The notes under the pieces are model-generated. The model worked only from the letters and a program-made list of their open reading frames with translations. It was not told where the DNA came from and made no database searches. 64,000 bases of DNA from a bacterium. Lineage in GTDB: Bacteria > Electryoneota > Electryoneia > Electryoneales > Electryoneaceae. Both the position numbers and the translations under genes were made by a program. The stretch spans positions 32,001 through 96,000 of the forward strand of contig CAXXKJ010000002.1 in the NCBI GenBank assembly GCA_963675295.2, in the 5' to 3' direction. This document shows, piece after piece, positions 52,722 to 63,164 of the stretch; position 1 is the stretch's first letter, and every line of letters begins with the position of its first letter.

Positions 52722-52856
52722 TGTACTGACAAACCGATAGCATTCACAAACAGATCGGGGACACGTAACGGAGTAAGTGTCCCCGGCCTCGTTAGTCTCA
52801 ACAGTTTTGGAATCACATGCCGACCCCTGCTGGCGCAGCCTTCAGGGGCACGTTGA

Positions 52857-56229: not shown

Positions 56230-58017
56230 CTACGGCCCAAAGGGCGGGTCGGGGTGCTCCGGTTCCGGTTCAATCCACGGAGAGTCGTAGAACTTCGGCA
56301 GGTCGTATTCGAAACCATCCCAGATCGGCCAGCAATTCCGGTTGCCTTCCGCGATGAACCAGTACTTTGGTACCTCCACGTTCAACACCTTGAACGTGCA
56401 CTCCTCGAACCTGGCGTGGTAGAAGTAGTAGCAGCGGCTCAAGCGTGGTGCCGCGCCAAACGTAAACCAAGTGGTGAGGGTTGTGTCCGGCTTGTTGAAC
56501 AGCACGTTCTTGTAGTGATGGCTGGTCATGTAATAGTACGTCATGTCGGCGTACGGTTCCATGACGCCGTCTTCCATGAAATAATCCAGCGTCAGGATCA
56601 ATACCGGGTAGTCGAGGATGCCAAACACGATCGAGTTTTCCATCACCAGCGAATCGACCGCGCTGAATGACAGTTCGGACGGGCGGAAGCGTGCGATCTG
56701 GGGGTCGTCAACGGGCAGGTTGTTGTGGCTCAGGAAGATGTGGTTCAGGTGTACCGGCCCGAAGCAGCGTTCCATGAACACGCCGCGGAAGTAGTTGAAC
56801 TGGCAACGAATATGTTCGAGTTCGATGTCGCGTCCGTCTTTGTCGAACCACAATCCATGACCATAATTCCACACGCCTTCGTAGTCGGCGACACGAATGT
56901 GGCGGCAGCGGAAGAATTTGAGGCCGCCGGCGTCATAGCCGACCGTGCCCGCCTCGAACCCGCGCCAGTTGTTGCTGTCGACGAAGGCGTCCCGCAGCTC
57001 TACCCCCAGTGCATGCGCGACCAGGATGCCGTAAATGCCGTTGTCGTGCGCGCGGACGTTTTCGATCAGGTTGTACGGTGGCCGTTTGCTGTAGTCGATG
57101 TACCACGAATCGGGATCGTCCGGATTTAATGGCCGGGCGGGGGTTTTGCGCACGGAAAGACCGTATGAATTCCCGTTGCGGAACATGCAATCGCTGATGT
57201 GCACCTTCTCCACCAGCGCGATATCCACCATGCCGTTCTTGATGAACGAGCTGCCGTACGCGAACTCGAGGTTGTGCAGCTCCACGCCACGGATGTGATG
57301 CGCGCGAAACAGGTACTGGCATTCGGAGTAGTAAATCGGGTACACGTTCGGGTTCAGCGTGGTGCGAACTCGGATGGTGCCGGAACCCTCCATCGGCACG
57401 GCGAAAGAGTTGAGTACATAGGGCACCAGCCCATGATCGCCCAGTTGCCGCAGCCGTTGCTCACCCTGAAACAGGTGCTCGCGGCGGATCAGGGTGTGCG
57501 CGTCACGATACTGCCCGCTATCGGGATTGGGCACCCACTTCTCCAGCAGGCAGCCCATCCAGCCCTCGAAGCCGTCATCGCCGCAGATGTACGAGTCCGG
57601 ATCCTGGTAATAGCCGAAATCATGGTCCCAAGGCGCTTCCCAGATGCTGCCGCCAATGTTGACCCAGCCTTCGATCGGGTCGGGACACAATCCGGTGATT
57701 AGCGGCTTTTCTGCTCCAATTCCCCGGAAAATGAGATACGGAATGTCCCAACCGTTCTATGACACCGTGGAATCGTCCCGCATCCGGTACGTGCCGGGCA
57801 GAATGTTGAGGGTGACGGTCTGATCGCCGGTAAATCCGCTCTGGGTTCGAATCCACTGAATCGTGGTCTGCAGACCGGCGCAAGCGTTGCTGCTGTCCGT
57901 CCCGCTGAAATCGCCGGACCCCTGGGGACTGACCCAGATGGTGTATTGTGCGTTCGCCAGGGGAACGCTGAGGAGAAGCAATGCGAGAAACAGGATGGTC
58001 TGATAGATTGATTTCAT
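56230..58017 (-). pseudogene. Secreted right-handed beta-helix-like protein, paralogue 3, interrupted by an in-frame TAG at 57757-57759
   Basis: ORFs 57757-58017 and 56230-57690 share a frame: ...DDSTVS*NGWDIPYLIFRGIGAEKPLITGLCPDP..., which aligns with both intact paralogues. Confidence 0.8.
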
Positions 58018-58247: not shown

Positions 58248-60050
58248 TCAGGGGCCTCCACCCCCGTGCCGTCTCCCTTTATGCTGTTCCCCTTCCGGCG
58301 GGTCTTCATCCCACGGCGTGTCGTACCACTTCCGCAGATCGTACTCAAATCCATCGTAGATCGGTTGGCAGCGACGGTTGGATTCGGCAATCACGAAATA
58401 TTTCGGGATTTCCAGACCGTCCACGATCCACGTGTTGTGATCGAGCTCGGTGTGGTACATATAATAGCAGCGGCTCATCTGCGGTGCGACACCGAAGTAG
58501 AAGAAGTAGAAATCGTCCCCGTCCGGCCGGCTGAACGTGCAATCCTGGTAGCGATTGTTCCACGCCTGCGTGTACAACGTATCGCTGTACGGTTCCATGA
58601 TGCCATCTTCCATCACGTAGTCGATGGAATGGATCAGCACCGGATATCCGCGCTGGCTCAGCAGCTGCGTGTTGCGGACGAGCATCGTGTCGCAGGCACT
58701 CATGCCCAGCGCGCTCGACCGGAAGCGGTAGATCCGGTCATCGTCCATATCGCGCGTATTCTGCGTCATGATACAGTGTTCGATCAGCACCGGGCCGAAT
58801 GATCGTTCCACAAAGATGCCACGGTAGGAATTGAACTGCATCCGGCTGTTGCGGACAGTCAGGTCGCGTCCATCCTTGTCGAACCACATCCCGTGCCCGT
58901 AATTGAACTGGCTCAGGAGGTTATCGATCACCATGTGCCGGGTTCGGAAGAACTTTGCTGCGCCGGCATCATAGGCGACGGTCCCGGCTTCGTAGCCACG
59001 CCAGTTGTTTCGTTCCAACCGCAGGTTGGTCACCGAGAACGCCTGTGCGTGCGCGATGAACAAGCCGTATATCCCGCAATGGTGGGCGTATACGTTGTCA
59101 ATCGTATTCCACGGCGGCCGCTTCTCTTCCATCACCACCCAGGAATCGGGATCGTACGGATCAATCGGATAACACGGTGCGCGGCTGACATACAAGCCGA
59201 CGGCGTTGCTGTAGCTGAATTCGCAATCGCGGATGGTGACCTGCGGGGTGTTGGTGATTTCGACCATGCCGGTCTTGATGAATGGATTGCCCTGGGTGAA
59301 TACGAGGTTGTGCAGCTCGACCCCCCGGGAGTTGCGCACCGCTAGCAGCTGTTCGCAATCGGCCATGTAAACCGGGACGTCGTTCGGATTGTCCGGAGTC
59401 TTGATCCGTACCATGCCCGGACCGTACATCGGGACGGTAAATGAAGTCGGGCGCAGCCACAGCGCTTCCATGTTGCCGACTTGCTTGAGTCGTTCCCCGT
59501 TCTGGAACAGCATTTCCCGCCGCAGGATGGTTCGCCCGTCACGCCAACGCTGATTCTCGAGGCTGGGGTGGAAGTTTTCCAGCAGGCATCCGATCCAGCC
59601 CTCGAATCCATCTTCGCCGCAGAGCATGGAATCGGGATTGGCCATGAAGCCGAAGTTGTATGGCCACGGCGCTTCCCAGTAATCGAGCCCCATGTTCACC
59701 CAGCCCTGTATTGGTTCGGGCTGAAGTCCTGTTATAACAGGCTTTTCCGACCCGTGCCCACGGAGAACCAGATACGGCAGATCCCAGCCTGTGTAGGTAA
59801 GACTGGAGTCTTCCGACATGTGGTAGGTTCCGGGCAGGACCATGATTTCAACCGTGGCCTCGCCTGGAATCCCGCTGGTGTGTTTGATAATGGAAAACGC
59901 TCGTTGAAGACCGGGAATGGTATTTGTGCTGTCGGATCCCGAAAAGTTTCCGGACCCTTCAGGGCTGACCCAAAACGTGTATTGAGCAAATGCACCAGGA
60001 ACCAGGATCAGCAGACAAACCAATACCACCAGTCTGCTGGCTACCCGCAC
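58248..60050 (-). CDS. Secreted right-handed parallel beta-helix-like protein, paralogue 2
   Basis: Signal peptide; FWVSPEGSG...PGTY N-cap; NNWRG, NYGHGMWFD and NSYRGIFVE repeats; RBS GGAGG. Confidence 0.8.
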   Translation of the reverse strand: MRVASRLVVLVCLLILVPGAFAQYTFWVSPEGSGNFSGSDSTNTIPGLQRAFSIIKHTSGIPGEATVEIMVLPGTYHMSEDSSLTYTGWDLPYLVLRGHGSEKPVITGLQPEPIQGWVNMGLDYWEAPWPYNFGFMANPDSMLCGEDGFEGWIGCLLENFHPSLENQRWRDGRTILRREMLFQNGERLKQVGNMEALWLRPTSFTVPMYGPGMVRIKTPDNPNDVPVYMADCEQLLAVRNSRGVELHNLVFTQGNPFIKTGMVEITNTPQVTIRDCEFSYSNAVGLYVSRAPCYPIDPYDPDSWVVMEEKRPPWNTIDNVYAHHCGIYGLFIAHAQAFSVTNLRLERNNWRGYEAGTVAYDAGAAKFFRTRHMVIDNLLSQFNYGHGMWFDKDGRDLTVRNSRMQFNSYRGIFVERSFGPVLIEHCIMTQNTRDMDDDRIYRFRSSALGMSACDTMLVRNTQLLSQRGYPVLIHSIDYVMEDGIMEPYSDTLYTQAWNNRYQDCTFSRPDGDDFYFFYFGVAPQMSRCYYMYHTELDHNTWIVDGLEIPKYFVIAESNRRCQPIYDGFEYDLRKWYDTPWDEDPPEGEQHKGRRHGGGGP

Positions 60051-60214
60051 GACGATCTTCCCTCCATATCTGCCTATGTGAGGAGCAGTGGGGCGAATAT
60101 AGCTCAGGATGCTGGGCGGGCATGTGGTTTTTCTGAGTTTCCTGTTTTTTGTGACTCTGTCTTCGGTTTACCGTTGACAGAACGAAGATCCGAGGCTCTC
60201 TTTTTGCCGAGAGA

Positions 60215-60238
60215 GAAAACCCCGCGACTGGCGGGGTT
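60215..60238 (-). terminator. Rho-independent terminator downstream of the hairpin array (minus strand)
   Basis: Minus strand reads AACCCCGC-cagtc-GCGGGGTTTTCTCTCT. Confidence 0.7.
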
Positions 60239-60307
60239 GTCAGAAATTAGCTACAAAAATGTAAGAACAAAGTCTTAGAATCGCTAAGTTGCTTAGTTTC
60301 AAAATTT

Positions 60308-61104
60308 GCCTGGCGTGGCTGGCCGGATTCGGCTCAGGTTTTGGTTTGACCGTCCGCCATCCACGCACAGGCCTCGGTACTCCGTTCGGGGGGTCAACAG
60401 TTCTGCCTGGCGTGAAGCGTTGGTTGCAAGACAAGATTGCCGAGTGATTGTCTGCCCACGCTTCACGCTCAGGCCAGTGGTCCCTGGATGACCTTCCCGT
60501 GCTTCAACAAGGTTGCCTGGCGTGGGTGATTGGATTCGGCTCAGTGGTTAGTAGTTGACCGTCCATCATCCACGCGCAGGCCTCTGTTTTTCGATTGTCA
60601 AGGTGCTGCGGGTACACGTTTGCCCGGCGTGAAGAGCTGGTGTCGCAAGTCTTCTGATGTGGGTCAGGTCATGCTCCCCACGCACGGGCCTGTGGTTCCT
60701 GGGTTGTGGCTTCCGTTGTATCCACAGATCTGCCTGGCGTGGCTGGCTGGATTCGGCTCAGGTTTTGGTTTGACCGTCCGCCATCCACGCGCAGGCCTCA
60801 GTTTCCGATTGTCAAGATCCCGTTGTACAGATTTGCCTGGCGTGAAGCGCTGAAAAACGGATCATCATTTCGGTTTTTGTTGTCCGTCCGCACTTCACGC
60901 ACAGGCCTCAATCCCCGGGTTACCGTTTTCGGCAACCGCTACAAGGTTGCCTGGCGTGGCTGGCCGGATTCGGCTCAGGTTTTGGTTTGACCGTCCGCCA
61001 TCCACGCACAGGCCTCGGTACTCCCGATTGTCACACTTCTGCCCGGCGTAGAGAGTATGCCATGTGTTGCCTGGAGTGGGGTTGGTCCCTCTCCACGCAC
61101 GGGC
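60308..61104. repeat. Array of eight bulged hairpins of alternating constant and variable type (candidate structured ncRNA array)
   Basis: Each unit is GCCYG-GCGT...ACGC-N-CRGGC; units at 60308-60372, 60405-60474, 60515-60581, 60622-60689, 60732-60796, 60835-60906, 60949-61013 and 61041-61104; linkers 27-42 nt. Confidence 0.9.
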
Positions 61105-61111
61105 CTCAATC

Positions 61112-62926
61112 CTATTCACCCGACAGTTCACGCTGCTTTCGGAACGGGTTGTCGCCCGGTACCGTGTCCAGCCACGGACTGTCGTAGAAATCGCGCAAGT
61201 CGTAGTTATTCCCGTATTCCACCGGCGGACACCACCTGATCATCTCCCGAACCACTTCGAAATGGGTGTGGTCCATCGTGCGTGTCCGGAATTCGGTTTC
61301 GTTGAACAGGGTGTGGAACATGTAGTAGCAGCGGAACATGAACCCTTCCACCACGAACCAGATGAACGACAGCTCCGGATCGGACCGGGTGATCGTGCAG
61401 TGTTCGAACTTGTTGTTCCAGCACTGCAGGTATTCCGGTTCGCCGTAGGGGGCATACAGACCCGGCTCCAGCAGGAAGTCCGGCGAGTGCATCATGATCG
61501 GGTAGCGGTACGGGTCGCTGATATGGCAGGAGCGAACGGTGATCGTATCGGTCGCGCTGATGCCCATCGCGCTCGGTCGCAGCCGCACAACCGTCGTATC
61601 CACCGGCTGCGAATTGTTTTCCATCACCACACGTTCCAGCAGGATCGGACCCGGCGCGCGTTCGATGTAGAAGCCGCGGTAGTAGTTGAACTCCAGCCGG
61701 CTGTCGCGCAGGGTCAGGTCACGGCCGTCCAGGTCGAACCAGATCCCGGCACCGTAGTTCCAGTCGGCGAGGTAGCCGGTCACTTCGCTGTGACGGCAGC
61801 GGAACATCTTCATCCCGCCGGTGTCGTAGGCCATTGTGCCGGATTCGTACCCACGCAGGTTGTTGCGCCGCACGATGCTGTTCTTGTGCAACAGGCCCTT
61901 GGAGTGGGCGATCAGCATCCCGTAGAACCCGTTGTCGTGCGTGTAGCAGTTATCGATCTGCCACCAGCCCGGGCTGTTCGCTTCCTCGATGTAGTCGAAA
62001 TCGGAATCGGGATCGTTTGGGTTGATCGGCCGCATCGGCATCTTGCGCACGGAAATGCCGTCCGCGTTGCTGTGGTGGAATTCACAGTCCTTGATGAGTG
62101 CGGTTTCGGAAGAGCTGATGTCCACCATGCCGAACTTGATGTACGGGTTGGCGTACGCGAACTCGAGGTTGTGCAGTTCGACGCCGCGCGTGTCACGCGC
62201 GGCAAAGAGGTACGAACAGTTCGCGGCATAAACCGGAACCTGGTTCGGGTTCTGATCGGTGTTGATGCGAACGTATCCAGTGCCTTCCAATGGGGTGTGG
62301 AAGGTTTGCTCGCGCATGTCGACGAATTCCGGCATCGTCAACTGCGTGAACCGTTCGCCGTCCTGAATGATCAATTCCCGGCGTAACATCGTGAGACCGT
62401 CCCGCCACTGGCCGGTGTTCAAATCGGGCACATACGATTCGATCGTGCAGCCAATCCAGCCATCCCAGTCGGAACCGCAAACATAGTTGTCCGGGTTGCC
62501 GTACCAGCCGAAGTCGTAGTTCCACTCCGCGACCCAGACATTGCCGCCCAGGTTCGTCCACGGACCCAGCGGCTCTTCGTCCAGCCCGCTCAGCAACGGA
62601 CGGGTTTCGCCGTTCGGGCCAAGGCCGTCCAGTCCTTCCAGGACGAGATATGGTTTTGACCAGCCCTGCCAACGGAATAGCGAATCACCCTTGAAGTGAT
62701 ACGTACCGGGCAGAACCTTCATCGTCACCATGTCATCCCCGGTGATCTCCGGGTGCATGCGTACATACGTCGCCGCCTCGTACAGGCCGCACATGGCGTT
62801 GTCCGGATCGGAACCGCTCATGTTGCCGGAACCTTGAGGGCTTACATAAAATGTATACTCCGTGGCAAACAGACTCGCCGGCAGCAACAGCGCCAGGATC
62901 AGTATGCCAAGAATGCCTCGTACCAT
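61112..62926 (-). CDS. Secreted right-handed parallel beta-helix-like protein, paralogue 1
   Basis: Signal peptide; FYVSPQGSG...PGTY; same conserved blocks as paralogues 2 and 3; ATG 62926 after GGAGAGG. Confidence 0.8.
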   Translation of the reverse strand: MVRGILGILILALLLPASLFATEYTFYVSPQGSGNMSGSDPDNAMCGLYEAATYVRMHPEITGDDMVTMKVLPGTYHFKGDSLFRWQGWSKPYLVLEGLDGLGPNGETRPLLSGLDEEPLGPWTNLGGNVWVAEWNYDFGWYGNPDNYVCGSDWDGWIGCTIESYVPDLNTGQWRDGLTMLRRELIIQDGERFTQLTMPEFVDMREQTFHTPLEGTGYVRINTDQNPNQVPVYAANCSYLFAARDTRGVELHNLEFAYANPYIKFGMVDISSSETALIKDCEFHHSNADGISVRKMPMRPINPNDPDSDFDYIEEANSPGWWQIDNCYTHDNGFYGMLIAHSKGLLHKNSIVRRNNLRGYESGTMAYDTGGMKMFRCRHSEVTGYLADWNYGAGIWFDLDGRDLTLRDSRLEFNYYRGFYIERAPGPILLERVVMENNSQPVDTTVVRLRPSAMGISATDTITVRSCHISDPYRYPIMMHSPDFLLEPGLYAPYGEPEYLQCWNNKFEHCTITRSDPELSFIWFVVEGFMFRCYYMFHTLFNETEFRTRTMDHTHFEVVREMIRWCPPVEYGNNYDLRDFYDSPWLDTVPGDNPFRKQRELSGE

Positions 62927-62949
62927 GTTGACCTCTCCGTGGTCTCGCA

Positions 62950-63110
62950 AAATCCGAAGTACCAGAAATTGTTATTAAACTCAATTCTTACGATCTTCAG
63001 TAGAATTATCAGAAGAATTTCTCGAGAAAGCAAGACCTCCCAGAGAATTCTAATAATAATTATGAGCACGTTATAATATTACGAAAATAACGGAGTATAA
63101 CAGGGGTTAC
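62950..63110. promoter_or_regulatory. AT-rich upstream region of paralogue 1 with palindromes
   Basis: Markedly AT-rich; TTTCTCGAGAAA palindrome (63018-63029) flanked by inverted TAGAATT/AATTCTA. Confidence 0.4.
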
Positions 63111-63164
63111 ACCGGATGGAGTGTTGCCTGGAGGGGTAAAAGAGAGGCCTCTTGCAGACAGCGG

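Follow-up and report, generated by a model that had tools for sequence, protein, structure and literature searches.

A genus-specific array of eight covarying hairpins behind a bacterial beta-helix protein gene, a candidate family of structured 3′ untranslated RNA

Positions 60308-61104 of the window (the whole 64,000-nt stretch of DNA that was analysed, by which all positions are numbered unless another contig is named) carry eight hairpin units of 64-72 nt each, all in direct orientation, and the base pairing in these units is kept by selection. Since the pairing has been kept by evolution, the array is probably a new structured RNA; as a structure it is well supported as a new, unannotated RNA family of a known general kind. 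The reading that we prefer, to which we assign a probability of about one half, is that of a genus-specific structured RNA read from the minus strand, namely an array of stable hairpin RNAs in the 3′ untranslated region of a protein-coding gene that may act as sibling sRNAs or decoys.

The original prediction had placed eight directly oriented units in this interval, and a strict pattern search of the 4.81-Mb genome agreed with it, matching 8/8 units at the array and zero elsewhere. A single long, irregular hairpin of about 65-72 nt makes up each unit. Its near-invariant basal helix (5 bp, a bulged base whose identity is free, and at least 6 bp) is topped by a covarying middle stem and then by an A/C-rich apical loop; 3′ of each unit lies a short conserved single-stranded flank, A-R-M-N-N-U-G-U. 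In the minus-strand reading, the apical loops contain 114 A, 81 C, 23 U and 18 G, or 83% A+C. In the direction of minus-strand transcription, the first is unit 8 (type B, 61041-61104, 55.7 bits with the covariance model described below), which starts 7 nt past the stop codon of a 612-aa gene. It is followed by unit 7 (type A, 60949-61013, 88.3 bits), unit 6 (type B, 60835-60906, 73.1 bits), which is without orthologue in the six-unit array of a related genome, unit 5 (type A, 60732-60796, 89.2 bits), unit 4 (type B, 60622-60689, 55.5 bits), unit 3 (a type A variant, 60515-60581, 88.1 bits), unit 2 (type B, 60405-60474, 76.4 bits), with the apical loop CACUCGGCRA, and, as the last one, unit 1 (type A, 60308-60372, 86.6 bits). 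The relations among units described at the outset were all recovered: unit 7 repeats unit 1 without a change over 78 nt, and unit 5 departs from unit 1 at two positions within the hairpin; two compensatory changes are present in unit 3, and units 4 and 8 have both partners of base pair 4 of the basal helix replaced. The same holds for the linkers of 27-42 nt between units and for the absence of an ORF across the whole array, the longest ORF within it being 107 aa. The A+B period had been given as 206-217 nt; the start-to-start spacing of the A units measures 207, 217 and 217 nt, which keeps the upper value and not the lower one. Tandem Repeats Finder did not report the array, because its copies are too diverged.

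The array is specific to one genus and lies at a single genomic locus. A blastn-short search of the whole genome gave no second array copy, with a 17-nt exact word as the best outside match, and a covariance model built from 19 units had eight matches in the genome, all within the array, when 150 candidates out of about 1,700 from a first look were scored. Pattern, blastn-short and covariance model thus find this locus only, in line with the earlier separation of the array from dispersed REP elements. Among the relatives, a DNA search matched 3/41 genomes, the present genome (G000) itself counted, and the covariance model matched 4/16 genomes of the family, the same 16 being those of the whole order: the element is found in 4/4 genomes of the genus (eight units in G000, six in G001, five in G002 and one in G003) and in 0/12 genomes of ten other genera (80-96% complete). 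Rfam 15 had no gathering-level match in the whole window, and its best hits at 59500-62000 had E = 2.7-9.7 and 15-16 bits, against cut-offs of 40-70; none of them came near a gathering score, in keeping with the original prediction, in which no CRISPR, attC, REP/BIME or TIGR consensus could be matched. BLAST of the array, B interiors and linkers included, against 50,697 phage and 72,556 plasmid records returned no match.

Pattern scans of larger collections yielded chance hairpins and no further homologues. In a public genome collection, the pattern, which was too loose, hit at least 119 stretches; among the matches listed, 80 loci scored at most 36.9 bits, versus 53-90 bits for real units, and they were rejected as homologues. 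A metagenome scan gave four loci, all at or below 20.3 bits, and a scan of viral contigs gave five, all at or below 16.4 bits. A GC-rich hairpin with a similar basal helix was seen as a single copy at 35-37 bits in each of two Comamonadaceae MAGs, one of Rhodoferax and one of Ramlibacter (sites L087 3412-3489 and L040 3960-4037); this likeness is most likely coincidental, and the sites contain the search pattern by construction.

When folded on either strand, every unit forms a single long hairpin, with z-scores against shuffles from -2.4 to -6.6 on the plus strand and from -3.9 to -6.5 on the minus strand, where the unit hairpins have energies of -29 to -38 kcal/mol. The fold of a 926-nt minus-strand sequence had z = -11.3 and retained all eight hairpins in its centroid. 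For pair counting, a hairpin of 25 pairs was written onto a MAFFT alignment of 19 units on the minus strand, an alignment that is not structure-biased. In these statistics, which like all pairing statistics given here draw on units from among the four carrier genomes, related and not independent, standard pairs occupied 91.7% of 456 cells compared to 80.4% after shuffling, a level reached by 0/500 shuffles, and dropped to 29-41% when the 3′ partner was slid by 1-3 columns; changes on both sides occurred at 13/25 pairs and involved 55 cells. A model-fitted alignment of 20 units, including that of G003, leans towards the structure and gave 92.5% standard pairs, again with 13/25 pairs changed on both sides. 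RNAalifold, given the plus-strand alignment, arrived unaided at the outer helix of the 25-pair hairpin, with 8/14 of its pairs compensated. The pair counts and this outer helix support what had been claimed from the sequence alone, that structure is conserved and not only sequence.

These data also bear on the possibility that the array arose by neutral tandem duplication of one hairpin, without function. Such an origin would suit the near-identical copies of the A units and the restriction of the carriers to four related genomes. It would also suit the comparison of G000 with G001, in which the linkers (80-100% identical) are conserved like the units (84-99%), and no extra constraint on the hairpins is therefore visible in that comparison. 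We nevertheless consider it very improbable: identity between paralogues of the two types is only about 45-65%, at which level drift would have broken the stems, yet the architecture is unchanged, type B units sharing that of type A down to the inner helices, and units this far apart pair in 92% of cells, with 13/25 pairs changed on both sides.

Unit by unit, the arrays of G000 and G001 are one-to-one orthologous, at 91, 96, 99, 84, 95-97 and 97% identity, the linkers being orthologous likewise, and G000 has one additional period of 217 nt. The original prediction saw a constant A scaffold alternating with variable B inserts; the B units, however, are kept between the two species at 84-97% identity and have the same architecture as the A units, and are therefore conserved, diverged paralogues and not fast-changing inserts. 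Nor did the B interiors and linkers match any of the phage and plasmid records searched. Neither is the A/B alternation a rule, since G002 has five units, mostly A-like and non-alternating, and G003 has one. The CACUCGGCRA apical loop is the most widely kept feature; all four species carry it, each in one unit, above stems that differ. The array probably grew through tandem duplication of an A+B dimer, and its copy number probably shifts through recombination between units. In a DNA contig from a seawater metagenome (run X5), the left flank is joined to unit 5, and unit 5 runs back to unit 2 (60225-60796), which means that in some relative the units differ in order or number.

As to the strand, the units had originally been treated as plus-strand elements, whereas the G-U bias and terminators on the same strand point to the minus strand. 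The minus strand has 16 G-U cells in the 16 outer pairs of the 19 units, where the plus strand has a single one; over all 25 pairs the counts are 25 versus 13, and over the nine inner pairs, which are poorly aligned, 9 versus 12. On the opposite strand the covariance score does not exceed 17.3 bits, against 53-90 bits for real units. From the G-U bias, the position behind the gene and the terminators we infer strongly that the minus strand is the RNA strand, and we hold this to be very probable. The converse would be an independent antisense RNA of the plus strand, starting in the AT-rich region 60241-60305 that precedes unit 1. Six of the eight units do fold a little more stably as plus strand, on which wobble pairs in the G/U-rich loops lower the free energy, but G002 does not retain these additional apical pairs. 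A terminator-like site on the plus strand of G002 could be counted in favour of this antisense RNA, though it lies before the array in that direction. No plus-strand terminator was found after the array and no sigma-70-like promoter for such a transcript, and with a single G-U cell in the outer stems a plus-strand RNA appears very unlikely. A Bacteroidetes-type promoter (CAnnTTTG, plus strand) before each unit was also rejected, because its predicted start falls inside the covarying basal stem and the strand evidence favours minus.

On the minus strand, the array occupies the putative 3′ untranslated region of the gene of a 612-aa right-handed beta-helix protein (61112-62950), whose stop codon is TAG. 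About 70 nt past the last unit lies an intrinsic-terminator-like hairpin with a U-rich tail (60218-60238, minus strand), which has an orthologue with a compensatory change in G001; in G003 a terminator follows the single unit, so that same-strand terminator-like sites are found after the array in 3/4 genomes (G000, G001 and G003). The hairpin at this position in G002 passes the terminator scan on the opposite strand only. Beyond the terminator, the next gene (58248-60050, minus strand) encodes a paralogous beta-helix protein of 600 aa with a signal-peptide-like start, 45% identical to the 612-aa protein; at E ≤ 1e-20, the 612-aa protein and its paralogues were found in the array-bearing genus only. 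Upstream of the 612-aa gene in G000 there is a TPR-like gene. In the AT-rich promoter and 5′-UTR region of the 612-aa gene (62951-63164, minus strand), several blocks are conserved across the four species and are present even in G003, which lacks most of the gene. This conservation suggests a regulated promoter or 5′ leader, and one of the conserved blocks is short and hairpin-forming.

A third beta-helix paralogue (56230-58017) has an in-frame TAG at codon 87 (57757-57759, minus strand), where the G001 orthologue has Tyr, and is therefore interrupted in G000; the gene may be a pseudogene, the nonsense mutation may be confined to this strain, or the sequence may be in error. For the 612-aa gene, the idea that the hairpins stimulate recoding or read-through of the stop codon was considered and rejected, as a second in-frame stop comes two codons later; this reading is weakened also by the TAG of the third paralogue, which replaces a Tyr codon of G001.

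The position of the array, directly past a stop codon and before a terminator, would equally be expected of a structure acting in cis only, which, in the manner of REP/BIME elements, protects the 612-aa mRNA against 3′ exonucleases or insulates it from the downstream paralogue. The stability of the hairpins speaks for such a role, and so does the lack of any RNA chaperone found in the genome. An exonuclease block, however, needs neither a near-invariant basal helix nor the CACUCGGCRA loop nor a conserved 3′ flank, and eight hairpins ahead of a terminator hairpin would be redundant. A purely cis-acting role is thus a possible reading, to which we give clearly less credit than to RNAs that act in trans. 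We favour a trans product because the basal helix, one loop and the 3′ flank are conserved in sequence and because the G003 unit stands without the gene.

G003 is instructive in this respect. The gene in front of its single unit is homologous to the TPR-like gene, and about 350 nt between the two align with the promoter, 5′ UTR and start of the 612-aa gene when compared with the region of that gene in the other three species. The beta-helix CDS is absent; there is a 33-codon ORF, with the unit 13 nt past it and, beyond the unit, another hairpin and the terminator. This layout therefore links the unit to the promoter of the 612-aa gene and indicates that the unit is kept without the CDS. That a well-paired unit and its terminator persist although the CDS is gone argues against a role in cis only, to the extent that the deletion, which may be recent or old, allows.

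The 33-codon ORF (L009 1393-1494), which lies upstream of the single unit behind a strong Shine-Dalgarno-like site, looks like the remnant of a large deletion. A derivation from the C-terminal end of the 612-aa protein was rejected, as tblastn showed no match; the ORF aligns with the start region of the gene. A convergent aminotransferase gene adjoins the unit in G003 and lies about 68 kb away in G000 (C2:22971-24104), so this interval is variable within the genus. It comprises cell-envelope and polysaccharide genes, and in the window (1-60050) an epimerase, UDP-glucose dehydrogenase, PBP1, GT9 and beta-helix proteins were seen.

Compared with the known systems, the array lacks at least one defining feature of each of REP/BIME elements, attC sites, CRISPR, TIGR-Tas, type III antitoxins and the CsrB/CrcZ type of RNA. 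In enterobacteria and pseudomonads, REP/BIME elements form groups of imperfect, GC-rich hairpins between genes or in 3′ untranslated regions, where they are cotranscribed with the upstream gene and can stabilise it; REP copies are scattered and number tens to hundreds, and the orientation of successive units alternates in BIMEs. The array shares with them the GC-rich imperfect hairpins and the location in a putative 3′ untranslated region, but it is a single locus, all units are direct and they are about twice as long. The genome has a separate palindrome family, GGGGACAC...GTGTCCCC, with 125 hairpin pairs genome-wide and a consensus unlike that of the array; its 8-mer occurs 410 times versus about 147 expected, and sites were noted at position 52757 of the window and at C2:2975600-2975870 and C2:2139950-2140080. 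Y1-transposase (PF01797) matches number 12 in the genome, eight of them with identical scores and none in the window, and this palindrome family together with the Y1 transposases is probably the real REP/IS200-type system of the genome.

attC sites are likewise imperfect hairpins with extrahelical bases and a variable centre, in direct-orientation arrays, and their consensus cores are R'' (RYYYAAC) and R' (GTTRRRY). The array hairpins have one extrahelical base and direct orientation in common with them. The cores were found within 10 nt of the ends in 0/8 units, linkers of 27-42 nt hold no cassettes as an integron would, and the flanking genes encode beta-helix proteins. On these grounds a DNA-level element, in which ssDNA hairpins or cruciforms would serve a recombinase or transposase (attC- or REP/RAYT-like) or the units would be repeated protein-binding sites, is highly unlikely. 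The differences in unit number and order, both among the four genomes and in the seawater DNA contig, are compatible with such an element, as are the 12 Y1 (HUH) transposase matches and the attC-like extrahelical base, but copy-number variation is expected of any tandem repeat, and the REP-like family of this genome has another consensus and many copies where the array has a single locus. The original prediction had left the choice between an RNA and an ssDNA substrate; the 16 to 1 G-U asymmetry and the contigs from RNA libraries described below tip it towards an RNA-level element.

The remaining comparisons were equally negative. CRISPR repeats measure about 23-47 nt, whereas the array units have 64-72 nt and their 'spacers' are mutually homologous, conserved between species and without phage or plasmid match; no Nop-domain match (PF01798), as in Tas of TIGR-Tas systems, was present in the 92.8%-complete genome. 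The statements that no attC, CRISPR or TIGR consensus is matched therefore stand, on core sites, on unit length and homologous spacers, and on the Nop-domain search, respectively. In type III toxin-antitoxin loci (ToxI-like), tandem RNA repeats and a terminator precede an endoribonuclease toxin gene; past the array terminator, by contrast, comes the 600-aa beta-helix protein. CsrB and RsmZ sequester CsrA, and CrcZ, which has CA motifs, sequesters Hfq/Crc. The array resembles these RNAs in its many stem-loops with a similar single-stranded motif, the A/C-rich loops recalling the CA motifs of CrcZ, but its loops share composition and not a fixed motif. Moreover, Hfq (PF17209) and CsrA (PF02599) had 0 matches each in the 92.8%-complete genome and no RRM_1 protein was found there, so that no chaperone or sequestered partner can be named.

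The closest working analogue, to which there is no homology, is CcsR1-4 ('cuckoo'-type) of Rhodobacter sphaeroides, four homologous sRNAs which RNase E matures from the ccaF1 3′ UTR (PMC8034643). Both cases have homologous hairpin RNAs head to tail right behind a CDS, on the same strand and before the end of the transcription unit, where for the array the strand is the one favoured above. The gene upstream of the array encodes a large secreted beta-helix protein, whereas that of CcsR encodes a small DUF1127 RNA-binding protein. The array is without sequence or structural similarity to CcsR, and Rfam gave no match; it consists of single long bulged hairpins, in up to eight units, with A/C-rich loops, and no Hfq was found in its genome. 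The loops of CcsR have a C/U-rich motif.

Parts of the stretch are contained in 12 public sequencing runs, two of them metatranscriptomes from one freshwater-sediment study; runs with a small share of it come from marine, seawater, sediment and soil samples. In a contig comparison that covered 4/12 runs at an 85% cut-off, contigs of 90-99% likeness spanned 60307-60760 and 60803-60977 in the first metatranscriptome and 60404-60584 and 60588-60924 in the second one. Neither of the two covered 60150-60297 on the terminator side or 61001-61250 on the CDS side. The G001 flanks are 92% (terminator side) and 88% (CDS side) identical to those of G000, and the flanks of a relative should therefore pass the 85% cut-off. 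The array is thus present in RNA-library contigs, which fits an abundant and stable array RNA, these contigs being from a single study, free of strand, end or level information and open to DNA carry-over. The uncovered flanks give no more than a hint, as do the contig ends, two of which (60307 and 60404) were seen near hairpin bases, in contigs of this one study. With a role in cis only, array-confined contigs could be protected decay intermediates.

For the preferred reading, that of stable hairpin RNAs acting in trans, we infer the following course of events. The array would probably be co-transcribed with the 612-aa gene from the promoter of that gene, as a 3′ UTR of about 900 nt that would end at the terminator 60218-60238. 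The hairpins would block 3′-to-5′ exonucleases, so that stable hairpin RNAs would accumulate and outlive the mRNA, either as the whole array or as units cut apart in the linkers. Once accumulated, these RNAs might exert a trans effect, whether as decoys or as sibling sRNAs, by means of the loops and the invariant bulged helix. Complementarity gave no clear target: the complement of the 10-mer in the unit 2 loop has nine further sites in the genome, with about nine expected, none of them convincing at a start codon. A more elaborate variant, which we think unlikely, takes the array for a polycistronic precursor of hairpin RNAs, whose bulged basal helix would be read by an endonuclease or RNA-binding protein, as Cas6 reads CRISPR repeats and Drosha reads miRNA clusters; up to eight different RNAs of 65-85 nt would be released, with the loops as guides or decoys.

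Should the array be a 3′ stabiliser only, it would be a lineage-specific analogue of REP function and of limited interest. Little is known of RNA-based regulation in those relatives of the Bacteroidota that have neither Hfq nor CsrA. For these organisms, a covarying and amplified hairpin RNA that is tied to a cluster of secreted-protein and cell-envelope genes and detectable in environmental RNA libraries provides a tangible starting point. The invariant bulged helix could serve as bait for a new RNA-binding protein or processing enzyme, and the natural series of 1, 5, 6 and 8 units permits a comparison of dosage.
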